Shown: positions 3,876-16,333, numbered from the stretch's first letter. The stretch is DNA of 64,000 nt from an uncultured Nostoc sp. (GCF_964245575.1 NZ_CAXTNP010000005.1:899-64898); one strand, 5' to 3'. Numbers and translations are program-made. The notes: generated by a model not told the origin, from the sequence alone.

Positions 3876-4349
3876 CTATCTTTTTACCCAAAATAAACTC
3901 AACCCGAATACAGACAATCCAAGCATCAAACTTGGCTCTGGAACACTGGTATAAGTGACGGTCTGAACACCTGCACTACTTGAATCGTTCAGATTGATAA
4001 AATTTTCGCGGTAGACATTAAAAGCGCTAGGTGTAAAATATAACCCTAACCCTGCTTGGTTAAAAATTGTTCCTGAGAAGTCAGTGAAAACTGACGCTAA
4101 AGGATCATCAGCTTCAGTGTATGACTGACCACCATAGCTAGCAGAAATCTTTAAACCTTCTGCGATCGTTACTTCTTGATCGTCTGCTGCTGCTTGGTCA
4201 AATGAAAAAGTGCCTGTGAGAGTTTTATCGTCGTTAGAAAAATTATAAGTTACGGCTGCTGCTTGAGCAGGGATAGTCTCCCCTAACGAAAAAATCAAAG
4301 CAGTTCCTACCGTTGCAGCTGCTAACTTCTTGAAGATGGAGTCAGTCAT
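3876..4349 (-). CDS. PEP-CTERM sorting-domain secreted protein
   Basis: 157 aa with an N-terminal signal peptide. The C-terminus VPEPSLMLGLSVFGLSLFWVKR shows PEP motif, TM helix and basic tail. Confidence 0.7.
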   Translation of the reverse strand: MTDSIFKKLAAATVGTALIFSLGETIPAQAAAVTYNFSNDDKTLTGTFSFDQAAADDQEVTIAEGLKISASYGGQSYTEADDPLASVFTDFSGTIFNQAGLGLYFTPSAFNVYRENFINLNDSSSAGVQTVTYTSVPEPSLMLGLSVFGLSLFWVKR

Positions 4350-4392
4350 TTTTTACCCTTGATAAAGAACAGGTGCAATAGTTTTTTGAGAC

Positions 4393-4416
4393 AGAGACGT
4401 GCTTACACACGTCTCT
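4393..4416. repeat. Variant palindromic repeat AGAGACGTG-cttaca-CACGTCTCT
   Basis: 9-bp perfect stem between the phosphatase stop and the PEP-CTERM start. Its arms are related to the GAGACGCG family. Confidence 0.5.
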
Positions 4417-4464
4417 GCAACACAAAGCTTTTCAGTTAGTGTTTAGTGAAGCGGTGTATTAATT

Positions 4465-6426
4465 TCACGGACTTGCGATCGCAGTTTTCATGGCTTGGAA
4501 GATATGACTTTGGTCAACCACACCCCGAACACCAGGGACACTGTAAGTACCAGAGCTATCTTTAATCTGAAAACCTTGTCCTAGCGATCGGGTCAGAGTT
4601 GATGCGTAAGCACCTTGGTAGTAAACAGGTACAACGCGGCGGCTATGGCTACCCCAGAGATATTTGTAATTTGGATCAGACCCCCAGAAGTGACCAGCAT
4701 CAGTAGGATTGTGCTTGACGAAGGTGATGTCCTTGGCGTTATATTTCAAGCCTTTAGCCTGATTTGGGTTAGGATTGGCAGTCAATTTAGAGGCAAAGTC
4801 ATTATTCAGAGTTAGGTAATGGTCATGGTCAGCAGTAACCAGTAGCAGGTTCTTGCTCCAACCACCATGATTATCTACCCAACTAATTACCTGCTGGACT
4901 GCCTTATCAAAATCATTCATGGTACCAATCAGGTTATCCATGTTGTTGTCATGAGCAGCCCAATCGATATCGCCTCCCTCAACCATCAGCCAGAAGCCAT
5001 CTTTGTCTTTACCTAAAACGGTTAAAGCTGCTTTGGTTAAATCAGCCAAAGTTGGATTTTCGTTAATTTCTTTGGCGATAAAGCTGGCATCAGTTTCACC
5101 AGGAGCCAGAGGACGAACAGTATCGGGTGCAGGAGCATTAGGAGCGATGGGATTACCAGCTGCATCAATGACAGGAACACAATCGCCAATACTACCAGTT
5201 ATTATCTTTCCTGATGGACAGGTAGCCGGAGTTCCAGGCTTGACAACAGAGGTATAAAGTGTGAAGTTACCCAGACCTGTACTGCTGTAGTCACCTTTAG
5301 AGGAGCTGGTAGGAATGTTGCCATCTTGTCCACGCGCACCATACAGACCAAATAATCTGCCTCCCTTATTGGGGTCGATTTTAGCAGCCGTTTTTAGGAG
5401 TGTCTTAGCTGCATTAGGGCCGCGTTCCAAAAAGGTATAGCCGTAACGATTGGATGTAGGATTATTCTTCAAATGCTGGTAAGTGTCTTCTGTAATATAC
5501 GTATACTTAAATACGCCATCGGCTGTACTTGTAGTGGCTTGATTTTCAAAATCTTTGGGATGACCGCCACCCAACAAAATATTGGGCTGAAAGTTCAGCA
5601 ATGTCTGTTGCAAAATGCTGTCTTGGTTGGTCTTGCTGGGGTCGTAAACACTGTCGTACTTACTACGACGATTTACGAAAGAAGCCGCAGCGCCAGGTGT
5701 TGCATGGCTAACAGGTACGGAAGTTACCAAGCCTGTAGACTTACCTTTTTCTTTGGCAATTTCCAGGATTGTTTTCAACTTCTTCTCGTAAATGTCTACG
5801 CCCATCGCGTTGTTAAAGCTTTTTACTCCCGTATACAGAGTTGTAGCTGTATTAGCAGAGTCGGGATAACTATATTTGATGTAATCTTTGTCATAAGTAC
5901 CAGAATTAGCAGGGGTCAAAGGAACCCAAGGAACAGGGCCGCCCTTACTGATGTCATAACCTGACAGATTACCATTCTCTAAGCTATTGCCATCAGCTCG
6001 ATTGCCAGGATTAAAAGGAGTAGGCTGGAATGAGAAGTTGGGACGAATAGGACTTGCACCAGTGAGTGGATTAGACCCATCTAAAGCAGAGTTAGTTGTT
6101 AGATGGGGTTGGTCTGTTGGGTTGGCTGGTGTATTTCCTTGAATTGTTGTGCCGTAAGTAGTCACCAATCCATATCCACTTAGCTTTTGGAAGCTCAGAC
6201 CTGAGCCTTTACCACTTGTGTAAAAAGGAGCGCCTTTGGCAACGGCTGCGGCCCGTGCCATATTCCAACCCATACCATCGCCAATCATGATAATTACGTT
6301 AATTCCATTACCAGCGGCCATAGTCGGCTGAAAAACAGAATTACCAAATACCAGTAGAACGGTGCAGAGGAAGCCAGCCATAGTAAAGGCTAGAAATCGC
6401 TTGTACTTTTGCAAAAATGAAATCAT
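4465..6426 (-). CDS. Alkaline phosphatase (PhoA family), secreted
   Basis: 653 aa. PhoA-type motifs present: IGDGMGW, DSANTATT (active-site Ser region), HATPGAA, EGGDIDWAAHDNN and VTADHDH. N-terminal signal/TM segment. Confidence 0.85.
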   Translation of the reverse strand: MISFLQKYKRFLAFTMAGFLCTVLLVFGNSVFQPTMAAGNGINVIIMIGDGMGWNMARAAAVAKGAPFYTSGKGSGLSFQKLSGYGLVTTYGTTIQGNTPANPTDQPHLTTNSALDGSNPLTGASPIRPNFSFQPTPFNPGNRADGNSLENGNLSGYDISKGGPVPWVPLTPANSGTYDKDYIKYSYPDSANTATTLYTGVKSFNNAMGVDIYEKKLKTILEIAKEKGKSTGLVTSVPVSHATPGAAASFVNRRSKYDSVYDPSKTNQDSILQQTLLNFQPNILLGGGHPKDFENQATTSTADGVFKYTYITEDTYQHLKNNPTSNRYGYTFLERGPNAAKTLLKTAAKIDPNKGGRLFGLYGARGQDGNIPTSSSKGDYSSTGLGNFTLYTSVVKPGTPATCPSGKIITGSIGDCVPVIDAAGNPIAPNAPAPDTVRPLAPGETDASFIAKEINENPTLADLTKAALTVLGKDKDGFWLMVEGGDIDWAAHDNNMDNLIGTMNDFDKAVQQVISWVDNHGGWSKNLLLVTADHDHYLTLNNDFASKLTANPNPNQAKGLKYNAKDITFVKHNPTDAGHFWGSDPNYKYLWGSHSRRVVPVYYQGAYASTLTRSLGQGFQIKDSSGTYSVPGVRGVVDQSHIFQAMKTAIASP

Positions 6427-9584: not shown

Positions 9585-12356
9585 TTACAAAATCCCTTTT
9601 CCTAATACCTTACGCTTCAAAACCAGTATCCGAGGTCTTGCTCCTGTACCTGAAAAACCTAAACCTTCGCGGAAGATTTCTGGCATATAAAATCGTGCCT
9701 CGCTATCCTTTTCCTTATCTTCGTAAATAACCCCCATTTCCTCTAGCATTCTTACTGTCGGCTGATCCATTTCAAATTGTTCTACGTCAAAAGGAATTTT
9801 TCGTTCAGAAGGGGGATATTTAGGTAGTATTTCTTCAACCCAAGTTTTGAAAGATGGATATTCTTCCTTAGCTTCTTCCACCTTCTTTTCACTACATGGC
9901 TTAAGAGCGCGGCGAATAGCTTGAGGAGGTAAAATACGGCTGGTAGACCACTTTTCAAATTGCACTTCTTTAGTTATTTCTACAGTAATATCGGCTGCAT
10001 GAAACAAAAAACGAACAATATCTCTCGCTTGAAGCCTACCATTAAAATCTGTCAAAGCTGCAAATATCCAGGAAGCTGTATATGCTTCTTTAGAGTTATC
10101 TGAACCTAGCCTTTTACCCCACAATTTTTCTAATCGCTCTATAATATTCTGTTTATTTAAACTGTTAATCTCTACTAGAGATGCATCTATTACTTGAGAC
10201 TGGCTGCATATCCAAAAGACTAAACGTAGAAAAGAATCTTGATCCCAAGATAGATCATAAGAAAGGTAAAGATTTTCAAATTGTTTTAAGTTTTGAGTAA
10301 TTGTATAACGCAGAAAATCACGGCGCAGAAAAATTATTACCCCAAGGTTAGACTGCCTAATTTCTGATAATCTCTTTGGCAAATCATCAATCAAAGCTTT
10401 TAAGGCAATTTTTTCTTGATTGCTGGATGCAATGTTTGAGAATATATCCTCTAATCCATCAAACAGAAAGATAATACGTAAGCCTCTATCTTTCAAATCA
10501 CGATTTATGATGTTAAGAATATTAAGACTATGTGTTTCAGGATTCACACCTATAGCTTTTGCAATTTGACCAATCCAGAATTCCGTCCATTCTGGTTCAC
10601 TCCAGTTTTCAGTTGCAATTGATCTTTTTATTCTATCCACATATTCTGAAAGTATAAACTCAGGAACACTATCTCCCAAAGCTAATCTCACCTCCTTTCT
10701 AGCTTCGTTAATCACAGTTTTTGCATTATCTTTAATGTTACTTGATTCAAGGAAAGGAAAAATATGTGTTTTTAGCTGTGATTCTTGAATAGTATTATCT
10801 ATACGATTCAAAAAACTTTCCCAGTATTTAAAACGTGATAACTGTATATAGTTAAACGTTTTTCCTGCACCTTTAGCTCCAATTGATACGACATGAGGTA
10901 ATTCATCTCGAAAATTAGTCGCTAAATTCTTCAATGGTTCCGTTACTAATAAATCTTCTCCCCGGCCTTGTTCAGCATACTCATATTGCTGACACAAATC
11001 TCTGAGTCTACGAACCTCAACAATTACCTGATGCTCTTTTATAGATTTTGACTTCAATTCCTGATCATTGGTTATAAACAACTGTTCTTTAGCCCACTCA
11101 TTTGCTACATTCATTACTGAAGTTGGACTTAGTTTTAAGCGGGAATCTTCCCAATTGTTAATATATAGTAATTCTTGGGCAAAATAGGTTTCTTTTATTT
11201 CTAATCTTGTAGCATATAAATTATCTTCTTCAGGCTGTGCATAAGCAGACTGAAATCTCACCAATGCATCTTCAAAGGCTGGTAAAGACTTTAGTTCTGG
11301 CATTAACATACTAATTAATAAACACGGCTCGTAATAGCTTTTATCATCAACTCTTTCTTCTGGCGGTGCAACTCTACCAATTTGCTCTAAAACAAGACTT
11401 GTACCTATGACTGATTGCTCGGTGATTGTTGTCACAAGAAAGCGTTGAATTCTGGGATCAAAAATGATGGGGCTGGATATTTCACTCAAACCCGCTCTCA
11501 AATCAATGAATACATAGTCAGCACCAACAGCCTTACCTAGACTATGAATAGCATTGCCCCATTCCCAAGCTCCGTCTGGACTTCTAACTAACTGCTCTGG
11601 CAGAATAGGTGTATCTAATACCTGATCATCATCAAGACAGGCAGGTAAAAAATAGACAGTTGATTTTCCTTCATATTTAGAAGATTTTTTAACTTCTCTG
11701 GCAAACAATGAGAGTGTTTGTTCTCTTTCAATAGGAGAATAGTGATAAACTTCAAGAAAATCAATTAAAGAAACAGATGGTTGCTGCTTTTCTGAACGAT
11801 TCCAATAGGTAAGACCAGGAGCTTCTAAATCAGCATCAATAACCAATACATTAATAGACAAATCTAGTTCTTTAGCTCTATCCAGTACAGCAAAAAGATG
11901 CGCTGCTAAATTCAATGTTCTACCTACACCACCCTTGAAAGAATAAAAGGCTACTAAATTAGGCTTTTCAGTATATGCATCTGGAAGTTTAACTTGTCTT
12001 TCTATTACACTTTCTGTTTCTGAATCATTTTCAATATAAGCAATTTCTTCCCAAAATGGACGTATAGAAATATCGATTGCAGATGCTTCTTCTCCGAGAA
12101 TAAATTCCACTGGTAATGTAGCATCACCAAGGTCGAGTTGTATAAGAGACTGATCTTCTTGATACCAGTCGCCAAACCATTCTTTTAAGGTATAGTTTGC
12201 ATTTTCTATACTCTGGTCGTTTTTCAGACCAATTTCTAAAGCATCTGAGAAACAACGAATTCTTAATACCCCATTTGGTAGTTTGCTGCCATAGTGGGTT
12301 TTACGACAAATAGTTCTTCTAACATCAAGCCATGTCAGTAGCCTTAGAGATTTCAT
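9585..12356 (-). CDS. Large dual P-loop NTPase: ParA/MinD-like module with KGGVGRT variant Walker A plus a second classical P-loop module
   Basis: 923 aa. Residues 140-147 are FKGGVGRT (nt 11916-11939), followed by VLVIDADLEAPG and YVFIDLRAGL. Residues 493-500 are GAKGAGKT (nt 10857-10880), with IIFLFDGLED at residues 628-637 (nt 10446-10475). The N-terminal ~130 aa and C-terminal ~170 aa are unassigned. Confidence 0.75.
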   Translation of the reverse strand: MKSLRLLTWLDVRRTICRKTHYGSKLPNGVLRIRCFSDALEIGLKNDQSIENANYTLKEWFGDWYQEDQSLIQLDLGDATLPVEFILGEEASAIDISIRPFWEEIAYIENDSETESVIERQVKLPDAYTEKPNLVAFYSFKGGVGRTLNLAAHLFAVLDRAKELDLSINVLVIDADLEAPGLTYWNRSEKQQPSVSLIDFLEVYHYSPIEREQTLSLFAREVKKSSKYEGKSTVYFLPACLDDDQVLDTPILPEQLVRSPDGAWEWGNAIHSLGKAVGADYVFIDLRAGLSEISSPIIFDPRIQRFLVTTITEQSVIGTSLVLEQIGRVAPPEERVDDKSYYEPCLLISMLMPELKSLPAFEDALVRFQSAYAQPEEDNLYATRLEIKETYFAQELLYINNWEDSRLKLSPTSVMNVANEWAKEQLFITNDQELKSKSIKEHQVIVEVRRLRDLCQQYEYAEQGRGEDLLVTEPLKNLATNFRDELPHVVSIGAKGAGKTFNYIQLSRFKYWESFLNRIDNTIQESQLKTHIFPFLESSNIKDNAKTVINEARKEVRLALGDSVPEFILSEYVDRIKRSIATENWSEPEWTEFWIGQIAKAIGVNPETHSLNILNIINRDLKDRGLRIIFLFDGLEDIFSNIASSNQEKIALKALIDDLPKRLSEIRQSNLGVIIFLRRDFLRYTITQNLKQFENLYLSYDLSWDQDSFLRLVFWICSQSQVIDASLVEINSLNKQNIIERLEKLWGKRLGSDNSKEAYTASWIFAALTDFNGRLQARDIVRFLFHAADITVEITKEVQFEKWSTSRILPPQAIRRALKPCSEKKVEEAKEEYPSFKTWVEEILPKYPPSERKIPFDVEQFEMDQPTVRMLEEMGVIYEDKEKDSEARFYMPEIFREGLGFSGTGARPRILVLKRKVLGKGIL

Positions 12357-12802
12357 AGTCTTTCAAGTTCTCCATTAATCCATTTGACAATTTCTAACAA
12401 TTTATTTTCTAATTCTTCATCAGTTGTATCTGCTAATGAAGAGCATCCACCATATCGCCACATTTGGTTAACTTCTCCAGGAGTAAATTTTCTTTCATCA
12501 TCCTTGCCACTTTTACCTTTTATTGGTTTCATACTTAACTGTGCTGGTAATTTCAAATTGTTGCCAGCAGATAAACAATCTAGTAGTTTGTTCACATCAT
12601 GCTGGCATTTCTCAATATCTCTACATAAATCGGTACGATTTGTTCGCCGTTTCTCTCTCCGCATCAAAACTGCTTTCAAACCACATTCAACTGCATAAAA
12701 TAAGAGTAACCGATGAGCGTTAGTTCGTGGTGTTATACAAGAAGCAGACCAATTATCTCGCCAAGCTTTCTCTATTTCTCTATCTGTAAACGGAATTACC
12801 AT
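12353..12802 (-). CDS. Small all-helical protein, HEPN-like (putative RNase-type effector)
   Basis: 149 aa. Its stop overlaps the start of the 923-aa gene in an ATGA. Has a helix-1-like AVECGLKAVL segment, then R61-x6-H68 (RDIEKCQHDVNKLL, nt 12599-12622). Confidence 0.55.
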   Translation of the reverse strand: MVIPFTDREIEKAWRDNWSASCITPRTNAHRLLLFYAVECGLKAVLMRREKRRTNRTDLCRDIEKCQHDVNKLLDCLSAGNNLKLPAQLSMKPIKGKSGKDDERKFTPGEVNQMWRYGGCSSLADTTDEELENKLLEIVKWINGELERL

Positions 12803-12846
12803 TATGCTATTTACAGTCTAAGTAACTACGAATAAACTCAGATATA

Positions 12847-15360
12847 TTATGTCAAAATCGCCCCACCCATCAATCGCTCATACCGATATTTCAACTCTTC
12901 TTTCATCAAATACCAGCGCTCTAAAGTTGCATCCGTCTCTATTATTTTCTCTGCTGCTTGCCGCGCTAAAAGTAAAACTTCTTCATCTTCAACCAAGCTT
13001 GCTAAGGTAAAATCTGGCACTCCAGATTGACGAGTTCCCAGTACTTGCCCTGGCCCACGAAAACGCATATCCATCTCTGAGATGAAAAAGCCATCCTGAG
13101 ATTGTTCCAATACCTTCAACCGTTGTTGAGCATCAGGACTCCTAGAACTGCTCATCAACAGACAGTAAGACTGAGCCGCGCCACGACCAACGCGCCCCCG
13201 CAGTTGGTGCAGTTGCGATAAGCCAAATCGCTCTGCATTTTCAATGAGCATAACCGTAGCATTAGGTACGTCTACACCAACTTCAACAACAGTAGTAGAA
13301 ACCAAAATTTGTGTTTGGTTATCACGAAATTTGGTAATCGCTTCATCCTTGTCGGCTGAACTCATACGACCATGTAGCAGCCCTACTTGAAAGTCAGGAA
13401 AAATGCTTTCTTGTAACTTTTGATGCTCCTCCACAGCCGATCGCAGATCCAGTTTTTCTGATTCTTCTACCAAGGGCAAAACCACGTAAACTTGTCTACC
13501 TTGAGCAATTTCTCGGCGGATGAGGTCGTAAGCATGGTTGCGTTGCTGACCTGACAAGACTGTTGTCTGAATCTTTTGTCGTCCTGGCGGTAACTCATCA
13601 ATTTGGCTCACATCCAAATCCCCGTGTATCGTCAGAGCCAAGGTTCTGGGAATCGGGGTAGCTGTCATAGTTAACACATGGGGTTGCTCACCTTTTTGCT
13701 GCAAACGCGCCCGTTGTTCTACCCCAAAGCGATGCTGCTCATCTATGACCACTAAGCCCAGTTGATGGAAGTTTACGGGGTCTTGAATCAATGCATGGGT
13801 TCCCACTAACAGAGGTAATTCACCAGTTCCTAACTGAGAATGTATTTGTCTTCGTTTAGCAGTTTTAGTAGAACCTGTCAGTAATTCCACTGGTAAATGC
13901 AAAAGGTTAAACCAACTAACTAACTTGCGATAATGTTGTTCTGCCAAAACTTCTGTGGGAGCCATCAGCGCTGCTTGGTAGCCAGATTGAATTGCTGCGA
14001 GGATAGCCAGTACAGCGACGACAGTTTTACCAGAACCGACATCGCCTTGCACCAAACGATTCATTGGTACAGGTTTCTGTAAATCGTTGAGGATGTCGTT
14101 GAGGACTCGTTGCTGTGCGCCAGTGAGTTGAAAAGGCAGTATTTCATGGAATTTCTCTACAAGTTGACCTCGTGGAACGAGGATGGCGCTGGTTTGAATC
14201 GCCCTTGCTTGCTGCTGACGTTGCAATAACCCAAGTTGCAGGTAGAAAAATTCATCAAATACTAGGCGACGACGGGCAACTTGCAGGACGGCGCTATCAT
14301 TGGGAAAATGGATATTAGCGATCGCATCTTTCAATTCCATCAAACCATACTTCTGTCGCAAACCATTTGGCAAAGGGTCTTTCAGGTGAGCCGCAGCAGG
14401 TAAAGCAGCTATTACCGCCTGTCGCACTGTATTCGCCACCACGCCTTCAGTCAGCCCATAAATTGGCACTACCCGCCCAATATTCAGCGACTCAATGGTA
14501 TCTCCTGGATTTGCCAAAACCTCTAATTCTGGATTATCTAGTGTCAAGCCGTATTTACTTTCTTTTACCAACCCACACGCCGCTAAAATACTACCCACTG
14601 GATAACGGCGTTTTAAACTTTCTTGCCAAGCGCGACTGCTAAAGCGCGTACCTGCATAAAAACGACCAATTTTGATTTGACCACTGTTATCTTTTACGAC
14701 CAGTTCTAAAATTGATAACTTCTGATTTTTAGGGCTAGTAAAGCAGTTGCAACGCTTCACTGTAGCCACTATTGTCACCGTCTCACCTGCCTGTAACTCG
14801 CGGATATTCACCTGACGCGCATAATCAATGTGGTCACGAGGATAGTAGAAAAGTAAATCGCGGACGGTGTGTAAACCAAGCCGTGCCAAATTACCAGCTT
14901 TTTTGAAGCCTATTTCTGGTAAATCGCTGAGTTTTTGGTCAATGTTCGGTGCAAGCCTCCGACTTACCTCAGTGATAATTTTAGATTTTGGGTCGCACCT
15001 TTGGTGCGCTGGAAGCGCAACTTGGATTTTGGATTGATAAATTCTCCCTTGCTCCCCTGCTCCTTTGCTCCTCTGCTCCCCATGCTCCTCTTGCTGTAGT
15101 TGCGAGAGATACCTACGAGTCTCTGCTACTAAATGTTGTCTTTCTTCTTGTGCGAGATGTGGATAACTAGCAAATTGCACCGCTAGTCCTTGCCAACGGC
15201 GGCGTTCAGTTTGGGGTAAGCCTGTTGGAAATTTGCCCAAAGTCAGGCTAAGAAATTCACTGAAGCGGTATTGTCTGCCCACCAAGTCTGTAAAGCCGCG
15301 TTCGGCTTCTATTGCCAAGGCTTTGTGCAATCGTATCCAATCTGGTTTTTCATTAGTCAT
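12847..15360 (-). CDS. recG: ATP-dependent DNA helicase RecG
   Basis: 837 aa. Wedge/OB region plus SF2 helicase motifs GDVGSGKT, DEQHRFG, TATPIPR and QLRGRVGRG. Confidence 0.95.
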   Translation of the reverse strand: MTNEKPDWIRLHKALAIEAERGFTDLVGRQYRFSEFLSLTLGKFPTGLPQTERRRWQGLAVQFASYPHLAQEERQHLVAETRRYLSQLQQEEHGEQRSKGAGEQGRIYQSKIQVALPAHQRCDPKSKIITEVSRRLAPNIDQKLSDLPEIGFKKAGNLARLGLHTVRDLLFYYPRDHIDYARQVNIRELQAGETVTIVATVKRCNCFTSPKNQKLSILELVVKDNSGQIKIGRFYAGTRFSSRAWQESLKRRYPVGSILAACGLVKESKYGLTLDNPELEVLANPGDTIESLNIGRVVPIYGLTEGVVANTVRQAVIAALPAAAHLKDPLPNGLRQKYGLMELKDAIANIHFPNDSAVLQVARRRLVFDEFFYLQLGLLQRQQQARAIQTSAILVPRGQLVEKFHEILPFQLTGAQQRVLNDILNDLQKPVPMNRLVQGDVGSGKTVVAVLAILAAIQSGYQAALMAPTEVLAEQHYRKLVSWFNLLHLPVELLTGSTKTAKRRQIHSQLGTGELPLLVGTHALIQDPVNFHQLGLVVIDEQHRFGVEQRARLQQKGEQPHVLTMTATPIPRTLALTIHGDLDVSQIDELPPGRQKIQTTVLSGQQRNHAYDLIRREIAQGRQVYVVLPLVEESEKLDLRSAVEEHQKLQESIFPDFQVGLLHGRMSSADKDEAITKFRDNQTQILVSTTVVEVGVDVPNATVMLIENAERFGLSQLHQLRGRVGRGAAQSYCLLMSSSRSPDAQQRLKVLEQSQDGFFISEMDMRFRGPGQVLGTRQSGVPDFTLASLVEDEEVLLLARQAAEKIIETDATLERWYLMKEELKYRYERLMGGAILT

Positions 15361-15462: not shown

Positions 15463-15497
15463 ATAACTCATAACTTATAATTCATAACTCATAACTT
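15463..15497. repeat. STRR-type heptamer tandem repeat (ATAACTC/ATAACTT/ATAATTC x5)
   Basis: Five consecutive heptamers read directly from the sequence. Confidence 0.8.
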
Positions 15498-16333
15498 TAT
15501 TCAAACCAACTAGCACGCCATGCAGCTTCAGCTTCAGCGATCGCTTTTTCTCGATGTTTCTTTTGATACTCTCGTCCTAGCTTGTTTAGCTGAACTAAAA
15601 TACTGCGGATTTGCCTGCGCTCAGAGGAGAGTGTTACATCAGCAAATTCAATTTCTCCTAACCGCAGGTTAATAGCCATAATTTGCGTCAGTCCAGAATC
15701 TTCTGACTGCTGCTCATTTTCAATTTCAATTACTAAGTTTAATAAGTTGGGTGGCCCTGGCATGGCCTCACCAGACGCTTCTGATGCCGCCGCAGCCGCA
15801 GCTGCTAAAATCGGTTCTGGTAATTTTTTCGGTAATACTCCAGATTTTTGTATTAAAATATTAGCATCATGCGAAAGTTTTTTCAGTATTTCTTGCATGA
15901 CCTCTTCTAAGTTCTGTTGCCATTTTACTAGTTCTATAGGATTATAGGTGTCGGCGGTGAAAGACTGAGAATTAGAGGTATCCAGAAGTCCAGAAGATAA
16001 AGAGGATGTTACTTCCTCATCCCTCTCATCCCTCTCATTTTCCCCAACTTCCTCACTTTTTATACAACCAAGCAACTGCTTTGCAGCCACTTGACCCAAC
16101 TTGCGGATGGCTTGTTGCAATTGTTGACGCTGATTCAATGACAAATGCAGAAAGTTTTCAGGATAGCCCTGAGTACAAAGGTGGTAACTCGCCAGAATCA
16201 ACTGTTTTCGTACAGCTAGCCCCAAGGTGTTTAGATAACTAGCATAAGCGTTTTGTAGTTCTACTGCGATCGCCCGAATCGCTTCTTTTATTGCTGCAAT
16301 ATCCCGTTCAATTCGCTCGATTGCTCTTGCCAT
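15497..16333 (-). CDS. Hypothetical coiled-coil protein with an acidic and poly-Ala central region
   Basis: 278-aa ORF with no overlapping competitor of comparable quality. I recognised no family signature. Confidence 0.55.
   Translation of the reverse strand: MARAIERIERDIAAIKEAIRAIAVELQNAYASYLNTLGLAVRKQLILASYHLCTQGYPENFLHLSLNQRQQLQQAIRKLGQVAAKQLLGCIKSEEVGENERDERDEEVTSSLSSGLLDTSNSQSFTADTYNPIELVKWQQNLEEVMQEILKKLSHDANILIQKSGVLPKKLPEPILAAAAAAASEASGEAMPGPPNLLNLVIEIENEQQSEDSGLTQIMAINLRLGEIEFADVTLSSERRQIRSILVQLNKLGREYQKKHREKAIAEAEAAWRASWFE

Follow-up and report, generated by a model that had tools for sequence, protein, structure and literature searches.

In a 64,000-nucleotide stretch of DNA from an uncultured Nostoc sp. 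(GCF_964245575.1; NZ_CAXTNP010000005.1:899-64898; here called the window), a gene for a protein with two P-loop modules probably represents the large subunit of a mobile, two-gene cassette that depends on nucleoside triphosphate (NTP). Judged from sequence, both modules would act as switches, and the role of the cassette would most likely lie in phage-host or mobile-element conflict. The gene is an intact open reading frame (ORF) of 923 codons at 9585..12356 on the minus strand, with an ATG start; its product is 100% identical to a database entry from an uncultured Nostoc sp., orthologs in other Nostoc are 95-100% identical, and public entries label homologs of the protein 'ParA family protein' or 'BcsQ'. 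A preliminary description of this sequence had quoted five motifs, FKGGVGRT, VLVIDADLEAPG, YVFIDLRAGL, GAKGAGKT and IIFLFDGLED, each of which was found at the residues assigned to it there; the description gave no strand. Absent from that description were an upstream partner gene and kinship with the candidate system PDC-M28, which set the functional context.

The first module is of the ParA/MinD (SIMIBI) type, as had been proposed. It matched the NCBIfam model NF047398 ('KGGVGR-motif variant AAA ATPase') over residues 132-326 with 158.7 bits (cut-off 90; E 2e-46). An AlphaFold2 model of the large protein, built on a 131-sequence alignment, reached a pLDDT of 91.9 and a pTM of 0.84, and its first P-loop is formed by strand 133-139 followed by helix 146-163. 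In a Foldseek search of the PDB, this module was placed with FleN, Chlorobium ParA (3ea0), FlhG, MinD, Soj and McdA, the ParA-type matches having a probability of 1.0, target-normalized TM scores of 0.6-0.75 and E values of 2e-6 to 1e-3. A Pfam scan of the window protein gave nothing at E <= 0.01, and the protein scored below the gathering thresholds for ParA-type families; the Pfam signals of ParA type and STAND type came from scanning 38 diverse family members one by one. The first halves of these members matched AAA_31 (37/38), VirC1 (34/38), CbiA (33/38) and ParA (21/38). In PDB sequence and profile searches, the match of the ParA-like half was confined to the stretch from the P-loop to switch I; nothing meaningful was obtained with the entire protein or with its N-terminal domain and C-terminal half taken separately.

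The window protein shares with ParA, MinD, FleN, FlhG and Soj a common fold, the signature Lys, the DxD of switch I and the Walker B Asp. In contrast to these ATPases, it has an Arg (Arg146) in place of the P-loop Lys. Conservation was assessed in an alignment of 131 full-length members with 27-77% identity. Arg occupies position 146 in 130 of them, down to 27% identity, and Lys in one. A regular-expression count found Arg at the P-loop position in 121 of 125 cluster representatives, and among stand-alone KGGVGR proteins 118 of 120 have it as well. Arg146 is characteristic of the family and under selection, not a private mutation; the preliminary description had left room for Lys in most homologs, which is not what the alignment contains.

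The remainder of the nucleotide pocket is equally well conserved. The signature Lys141 is present in 131/131 sequences, D174, D176, E178-A-P-G181 and D285 are invariant, and R287 is found in 130/131. Because these residues are invariant or nearly so, the pocket is likely to be functional rather than decayed. The invariant Glu-Ala-Pro-Gly after switch I and the Arg two residues past the Walker B Asp are additions of this family relative to ParA/MinD ATPases, and the stand-alone KGGVGR proteins share the corresponding trio KGGVGR[TS], DxDxEAPG and DxRTG. A further difference from ParA/MinD ATPases is that no partner of the ParB, MinE or McdB type accompanies the protein; the only conserved partner, of ~145 residues, resembles none of these. 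NF047398, with which the window protein shares KGGVGR[TS], DxDxEAPG and DxR[AT]G, covers the domain alone, and most of its close matches are stand-alone proteins of 200-350 residues, whereas in the window protein the domain is flanked by an N-terminal domain on one side and another NTPase on the other. We found no publication on KGGVGR as this ATPase motif in the literature searched.

In the ParA of the F plasmid, the substitution K120R leaves ATP bound and not hydrolyzed, blocks the ATP* state and renders the protein partition-defective. Since this engineered equivalent binds ATP without hydrolyzing it, the most reasonable reading of the KGGVGR module, plausible by analogy, is that of a re-tuned, poorly hydrolyzing nucleotide switch. 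That part of the earlier interpretation stands as plausible. Its other part, that the second module does the work, found no support; the closest relatives of that module appear to be STAND-type switches.

A KGGVGR domain also occurs on a plasmid of Massilia forsythiae (NZ_CP051687.1; L086:4434-6854), at the very N terminus of a 619-residue protein with a long helical C terminus. The gene is preceded, with a gap of 3 nucleotides, by one for an MqsA-family antitoxin-like zinc-finger/helix-turn-helix protein. Because of this pair, the KGGVGR domain appears to be reused in other two-gene modules.

The second module matched the NCBIfam model NF047389 ('P-loop ATPase, Sll1717 family') over residues 490-861 with 65.3 bits (E 5e-18), the alignment covering profile positions 33-387 of 454. 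The C-terminal half alone scored 67.8 bits, and in neither case was the cut-off of 75 reached. All of the C-terminal halves from 38 diverse members matched the Sll1717 family (best 4.9e-25). By profile comparison, the second half of the protein is clearly homologous to the Sll1717 family, although it lies below the curated cut-off. Sll1717-type proteins are stand-alone proteins of ~454 residues, whereas the window counterpart is fused; nothing on this family was found in the literature searched. NCBIfam thus already includes curated families for both the KGGVGR variant and the Sll1717-type module, and a related candidate system has also been catalogued (see below).

Several features of this module point to a STAND-type NTPase. 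In Pfam, the second halves of the 38 members matched AAA_22 (26/38), AAA_16 (26/38), nSTAND1 (21/38; best 7e-7), NACHT (20/38) and nSTAND5 (14/38). The window protein itself matched nSTAND1 with an E value of 0.13 and no STAND family of Pfam at the gathering threshold. Its motifs GAKGAGKT and IIFLFDGLED conform to the STAND patterns for Walker A (GxxxxGK[ST]) and Walker B (hhhhD[GD]xx[DE]), the form hhhhDGLE/D being typical of NACHT. In the alignment of 131, G496, G498, K499, D633, G634, R678, D680, Q776 and D779 are invariant, and E636 is found in 128 sequences. The Walker B form and the invariant Arg after the next strand would fit STAND-type NTPases, which are oligomerization switches and not motors. 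In the structure model, the second P-loop is formed by strand 488-493 and helix 499-509, and both Walker B motifs are strand ends (281-285 and 627-632). The second motif thus lies in a strand/P-loop/helix arrangement of the nucleotide-binding type, and the earlier assignment of an AAA/STAND-like P-loop module agrees with both the model and the AAA_16, NACHT and nSTAND matches of family members. Among the matches listed for the full-length model in the Foldseek search of the PDB, ParA-type entries filled all places. The resemblance to STAND NTPases (NACHT, AAA_16, nSTAND; Avs/NLR-like) comprises Walker A, Walker B, the Arg past the next strand and a conflict-like context. In contrast to them, the window protein has neither a sensor array of TPR, WD40 or LRR repeats nor a recognized fused nuclease, TIR or protease effector. 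Eight family members weakly matched mad8 of the MADS defense system (best 5e-5), which may point to a distant relationship of the second NTPase with a component of that system.

The preliminary description had seen no signature at either end of the protein. This proved correct for the ~130 N-terminal residues, which form an unrecognized domain, yet one conserved across the family (W9, D11, I72, L74 and P100); no relative of it was detected in searches that included a PDB profile search. The C-terminal region, on the other hand, does carry a signature: the Sll1717 profile extends to residue 861, and the protein ends in a helical, winged-helix-like region. Residues invariant in this region (in the alignment of 131) are W704, W746, Q776, D779, E832 and P855.

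In 79 of 84 loci, the large gene is directly preceded, on the same strand, by a homolog of the small partner gene. No other gene around the cassette proved to be conserved in the loci compared. The overlap of 4 nucleotides (ATGA) between the two genes recurs in Planktothrix, Crocosphaera, a deltaproteobacterial metagenome-assembled genome and Microcystis (loci L001, L003, L004 and L103), where the neighbors are entirely different. This overlap implies translational coupling.

The model of the small protein (pLDDT 87.5) is helical and contains a single beta hairpin. Y36, E39, K43, H68, R116 and Y117 are invariant among 40 diverse members. Two sources label members of this family 'HEPN domain-containing'. 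Foldseek searches against the PDB and BFVD gave nothing significant (E > 0.8), the best TM scores, 0.38-0.39, being to the HEPN structures 2hsb and 1ufb with E > 2. Comparison by hhalign with three solved HEPN proteins gave a probability of 24.5% over the C-terminal half only, and Pfam HEPN models matched none of 22 members. A PDB profile search likewise yielded no significant match. HEPN proteins of the PF05168 type (TT1696, 1ufb; TM0613, 1o3u; ST0689, 1wol) resemble the small partner in size, in the helical bundle and in the pattern E-x-x-L-K ... H-[DN]-L-x-x-L ... R-Y, and differ from it in lacking its inserted beta hairpin. The Rx4-6H motif is absent: no conserved His follows R116 at a distance of 4-6 residues, the invariant His being H68. 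On these sequence similarities the small partner is possibly derived from HEPN; we do not call it HEPN.

The cassette is related to a catalogued candidate defense system. PADLOC models of PDC-M28 matched the window genes (M28B 4.6e-14, M28C 5e-11, M28A only 0.0078) and the wider family, with M28B in 39/39 large proteins (best 2.4e-30), M28C in 34/39 (best 1.9e-16) and M28A in 5/32 small proteins. The order A, B, C of PDC-M28 is also the order of the cassette, that is, small protein, N-terminal domain plus KGGVGR module, and Sll1717-like half. PDC-M28 comprises three protein families and has been counted 121 times; it is one of 145 putative systems and was nominated by 'guilt by embedding' inside BREX, DISARM, type I restriction-modification and Hma loci (Payne et al. 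2024 preprint, 10.1101/2024.01.29.577857). No paper mentioning PDC-M28 was found in the literature searched. In contrast to the three genes of PDC-M28, B and C form one ORF in 84/84 loci of the present family, leaving two genes, and the similarity between the two is remote. By profile matches and gene order, the window cassette is a relative of PDC-M28 with a B-C fusion. That they have been fused speaks for joint action of the two NTPases.

A possible second precedent comes from 'inactive MinD/ParA-like' effector domains, described both as parts of NTP-dependent conflict systems and as attachments to AP-ATPases in multicellular bacteria (Kaur et al. 2020, eLife, PMC7159879). These share with the window protein a MinD/ParA-like domain predicted to be impaired and fused to or associated with a STAND protein (AP-ATPase), mostly in multicellular bacteria; the window family is likewise frequent in filamentous cyanobacteria, cable bacteria, Thiomargarita, actinomycetes and Chloroflexota. 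The systems of Kaur et al. are vWA-MoxR/VMAP ternary systems, none of whose components is present in the window cassette.

The window protein has more than 1,200 homologs. A search of 1.84 billion representatives of clusters at 50% identity returned 1,220 relatives, 328 of them at E <= 1e-30. Almost all of the best 150 are full length (850-950 residues) and can be aligned without a break, down to 30% identity; by this comparison, the fusion of the two NTPases is ancient. In a scan of one genome per species, relatives were found in at least 537 species-level genomes, with a patchy distribution across phyla. Carriers include Cyanobacteria, cable bacteria, Thiomargarita, Beggiatoa, methanotrophs, Betaproteobacteria, Campylobacterota, Nitrospirota, Actinomycetota, Chloroflexota, Lachnospiraceae, Bacteroidales, Acidobacteriota and one Methanotrichaceae archaeon. 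Several paralogous cassettes are present per clade. The genes flanking the cassette differ between lineages. Both cassette genes have a GC content of 36%, compared with 42.9 +/- 3.5% for the 29 other ORFs of the window, about 2 standard deviations below the mean, which is consistent with acquisition from elsewhere. A functional link with the neighboring gene recG was considered and rejected: the linkage is confined to Nostocales and absent in Planktothrix, Crocosphaera, Microcystis and all non-cyanobacteria.

Nostocales contain a second, very divergent paralogous cassette with ~30% identity to the window protein (L042, L045, L047, L051 and L061), which in at least one genome, that of Rhizonema sp. 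PD37 (L042, protein P0125), is found alongside the orthologous one; diversification of this kind is typical of conflict systems. A Microcystis copy on a metagenome contig (L103:2226-9908) has as neighbors a D12-class adenine methyltransferase and a cluster of toxin-antitoxin-like genes, which encode two PIN proteins and a Gp49/HigB-like protein accompanied by a small partner. On the Pantoea agglomerans plasmid NZ_CP031652.1 (L085:4200-7448), a sister cassette of greater divergence encodes a 150-residue protein and a 928-residue KGGVGRT...GDKGTGKT protein, and adjoins a tyrosine recombinase (integrase), a nucleotidyltransferase-domain gene and an Rpn nuclease. The 150-residue protein keeps the signature Y..E..LK / HDL..L / RY; a hidden Markov model of the small protein trained on cyanobacteria failed to detect it.

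Phages carry copies of the second NTPase core, and these are the strongest pointer to a role in phage conflict. Gene Mic1_05 of Microcystis phage Mic1 (MN013189.1; L102:4031-4651) encodes a 206-residue product, gp05, annotated 'ParA family protein'. Its similarity to the window protein is confined to residues 478-700 (39% identity, E 8e-49), and in the Microcystis host protein it corresponds to residues 471-687 (61% identity, E 1e-80). In gp05, Walker A is destroyed, reading IGEDVAKKTF where the host has IGAKGAGKTF, while Walker B (DGLEN) and the HRD strand are retained. The fragment recurs in four viral contigs from IMG/VR (L107-L110, ~3940-4516), with 67-69% identity, P-loops that are more degenerate still (IGEGVAENTF, IGADVAEYTF) and a deletion of ~50 residues. 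The phage copies measure ~190-206 residues and all end at a common C-terminal boundary. A single full-length copy of the gene was found in IMG/VR. The ratio of nonsynonymous to synonymous substitution rates (dN/dS) among the phage copies was 0.13-0.34 over 125 codons, and by this measure they are under purifying selection. The phage fragment appears to be a core derived from the host and unable to bind nucleotide, and looks like a dominant-negative decoy of an oligomerizing host protein.

Mic1 ORF5 has been published as the ParA of a ParABS partition system and taken as evidence for lysogeny (PMC7156551, PMC11237433). In NCBIfam, gp05 gave a weak match to Sll1717 (E 1.9e-4) and none to a ParA model. 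Because there is no ParA-type match and the weak match is to Sll1717, the ParABS claim is unsupported by domain content. The label probably reflects annotation transfer from the name 'ParA family protein' of the fused host protein.

The features of the cassette are collected in Table 1. The promoter match agrees with the consensus at 9 of 12 positions, and the number of such sites in the region is not above that in shuffled sequences, so this constitutes weak evidence. A terminator scan around the cassette found none, and no second copy of the cassette was found elsewhere in the window. Between recG and tsf, at 15497-16333 on the minus strand of the window, lies an ORF of 278 codons whose product, at the thresholds applied, was matched by nothing in Pfam, NCBIfam or PADLOC.

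Table 1. Features of the two-gene cassette, in positions of the window and residues of the large protein.
Feature	Residues	Position	Strand	Remarks
Large gene		9585..12356	-	N-terminal domain, KGGVGR ParA-like module, linker, Sll1717/STAND-like NTPase, helical C terminus
N-terminal domain	1-130	11967..12356	-	Small alpha/beta domain (~1-90) and linker
KGGVGR-variant ParA/MinD-fold module	131-426	11079..11966	-
Deviant Walker A FKGGVGRT	140-147	11916..11939	-	Lys141 signature; Arg146 in place of the P-loop Lys
Switch I VLVIDADLEAPG	170-181	11814..11849	-	D174, D176, E178, A179, P180, G181 invariant
ParA-like Walker B YVFIDLRAGL	281-290	11487..11516	-	D285; family-specific R287
Inter-module linker	427-485	10902..11078	-	In the model, 430-439 low confidence, helices 442-481
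Second P-loop NTPase core	486-700	10257..10901	-	Sll1717 family, STAND-like; portion copied by cyanophage Mic1
Canonical Walker A GAKGAGKT	493-500	10857..10880	-	G496, G498, K499 invariant
Second Walker B IIFLFDGLED	628-637	10446..10475	-	D633, G634 invariant; E636 in 128/131
Strand 671-678 and R678-x-D680	671-680	10317..10346	-	Putative sensor 1, by analogy with NB-ARC 'TTR' and NACHT 'TSR'
C-terminal helical region	701-923	9588..10256	-	Helix/beta-hairpin/helix at 865-899, winged-helix-like
Small partner gene (149 aa)		12353..12802	-	Helical, one beta hairpin
ATGA overlap		12353..12356	-	Stop of small gene, start of large gene
Sigma-70-like promoter match		12846..12873	-	TTGATG, 16 nt, TG-CATAAT; lies in the 3' end of recG, a short way ahead of the small gene

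How might such a cassette operate? We propose that both modules would be nucleotide switches rather than motors. The STAND-like half would bind ATP, sense a trigger and oligomerize. The KGGVGR half would bind ATP, form an ATP-sandwich dimer and turn over slowly or not at all; it would thereby serve as a latch or scaffold, or would itself be an effector that targets division or the nucleoid. Dimerization is expected because the signature Lys, which in ParA/MinD proteins reaches across the sandwich dimer, has been kept. The translationally coupled small protein may be the regulated effector or a toxin-like partner. More tentatively, the cassette may be an immune module in which two P-loop switches in series, a ParA-like one 'locked' by the Lys-to-Arg change and a STAND-like sensor, control a partner of novel fold, and in which the nucleotide-blind core of cyanophages poisons the assembly. 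We consider this more specific version possible rather than likely.

Several observations weigh against a switch-based conflict cassette. The catalytic residues D174 and D176 are kept, and the KGGVGR module could therefore retain residual or partner-stimulated hydrolysis. The STAND assignment draws on sub-threshold Pfam matches, and a C-terminal repeat sensor is absent. For the small protein, neither structure nor profile comparisons gave a significant match and the Rx4-6H motif is missing, making its role as effector a guess. Mic1 gp05 lies outside the early gene set. In six Nostocales loci recG stably adjoins the cassette, which resembles vertical inheritance. Finally, 106 flanking ORFs analyzed with Pfam and PADLOC were mostly housekeeping genes, with few defense matches (DpdF, PglX, a type I S subunit and a type IV restriction endonuclease), and no enrichment of defense islands was shown among them.

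Among the alternatives, the one that fares best, though we regard it as unlikely, is a selfish addiction module, in which the large NTPase restrains a small toxin and the pair is kept on mobile elements by post-segregational killing. The translational coupling of the two genes and their low GC content would suit such a module, as would the toxin-antitoxin surroundings in Microcystis, the integrases nearby on plasmids and the pairing of the Massilia KGGVGR protein with a homolog of an MqsA-type antitoxin. However, a double NTPase of 923 residues is far more elaborate than usual antitoxins. Carriage on plasmids is rare, with matches of any kind in 6 of 72,556 plasmid records and full-length copies in only two, both Ralstonia megaplasmids, and the decoy-like phage fragment points to direct interaction with phage. 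Addiction and defense are compatible roles and not mutually exclusive.

Less probable still is that the ParA-like half is a regulatory switch for a second module working as an AAA-type engine, such as an unfoldase, translocase or remodeler. The canonical, invariant Walker A and B motifs, the acidic pair D633/E636 and R678 would be in keeping with an engine, and weak AAA_22 and AAA matches were obtained for many members. Yet the best and commonest matches were of STAND type (AAA_16 in 26/38, nSTAND1 in 21/38 and NACHT in 20/38), and the Walker B has the hhhhDGLE/D form that is typical of NACHT. No pore-loop or hexamer-type signature was identified, no structural test having been aimed at one, and the module has its own C-terminal helical, winged-helix-like region, as in STAND and Orc/Cdc6-like switches.

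We give even less credence to a housekeeping ATPase for positioning or segregation, perhaps in RecG-dependent DNA repair, with the second ATPase as an accessory. The ParA/MinD fold and the names 'ParA family protein' and 'BcsQ' suggest such a function, as do the recG neighbor in the window and in five or six other Nostocales loci and the mostly housekeeping flanks. Against this, neither ParB, MinE or another adaptor nor a third conserved gene accompanies the cassette, and the recG linkage is missing outside Nostocales. The patchy cross-phylum spread with paralogous cassettes and the existence of a disabled copy in phages also argue against it, and the Lys-to-Arg change corresponds to the partition-defective, hydrolysis-dead state of F ParA. 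That the Arg arose as a private mutation, or that the gene is in decay, leaving KGGVGR without meaning, can be dismissed, given Arg in 130/131 homologs down to 27% identity, an intact ORF and a curated NCBIfam model built on the motif.

In conclusion, if the switch-based cassette is indeed a defense system, it would represent a mechanistically unusual class in which no nuclease, TIR or protease effector is recognizable. Evolution has given its ParA-like module, here coupled to a STAND-like switch, the same change by which geneticists lock ParA with ATP bound and not hydrolyzed, and the KGGVGR family provides a natural experiment on an Arg at the P-loop of a SIMIBI ATPase. The disabled core carried by phages is a predicted inhibitor and offers an experimental handle. 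Should the immune-module reading be true, the cassette and the phage core would be a new defense system with a matched anti-defense gene, and the 'ParA' of Mic1 would have to be re-read as anti-defense. The cassette is common in cyanobacteria that form blooms or filaments (Nostoc, Dolichospermum, Planktothrix, Microcystis), in cable bacteria and in gut Lachnospiraceae, and, if it serves in defense, it could shape phage-host dynamics in these groups of ecological importance.

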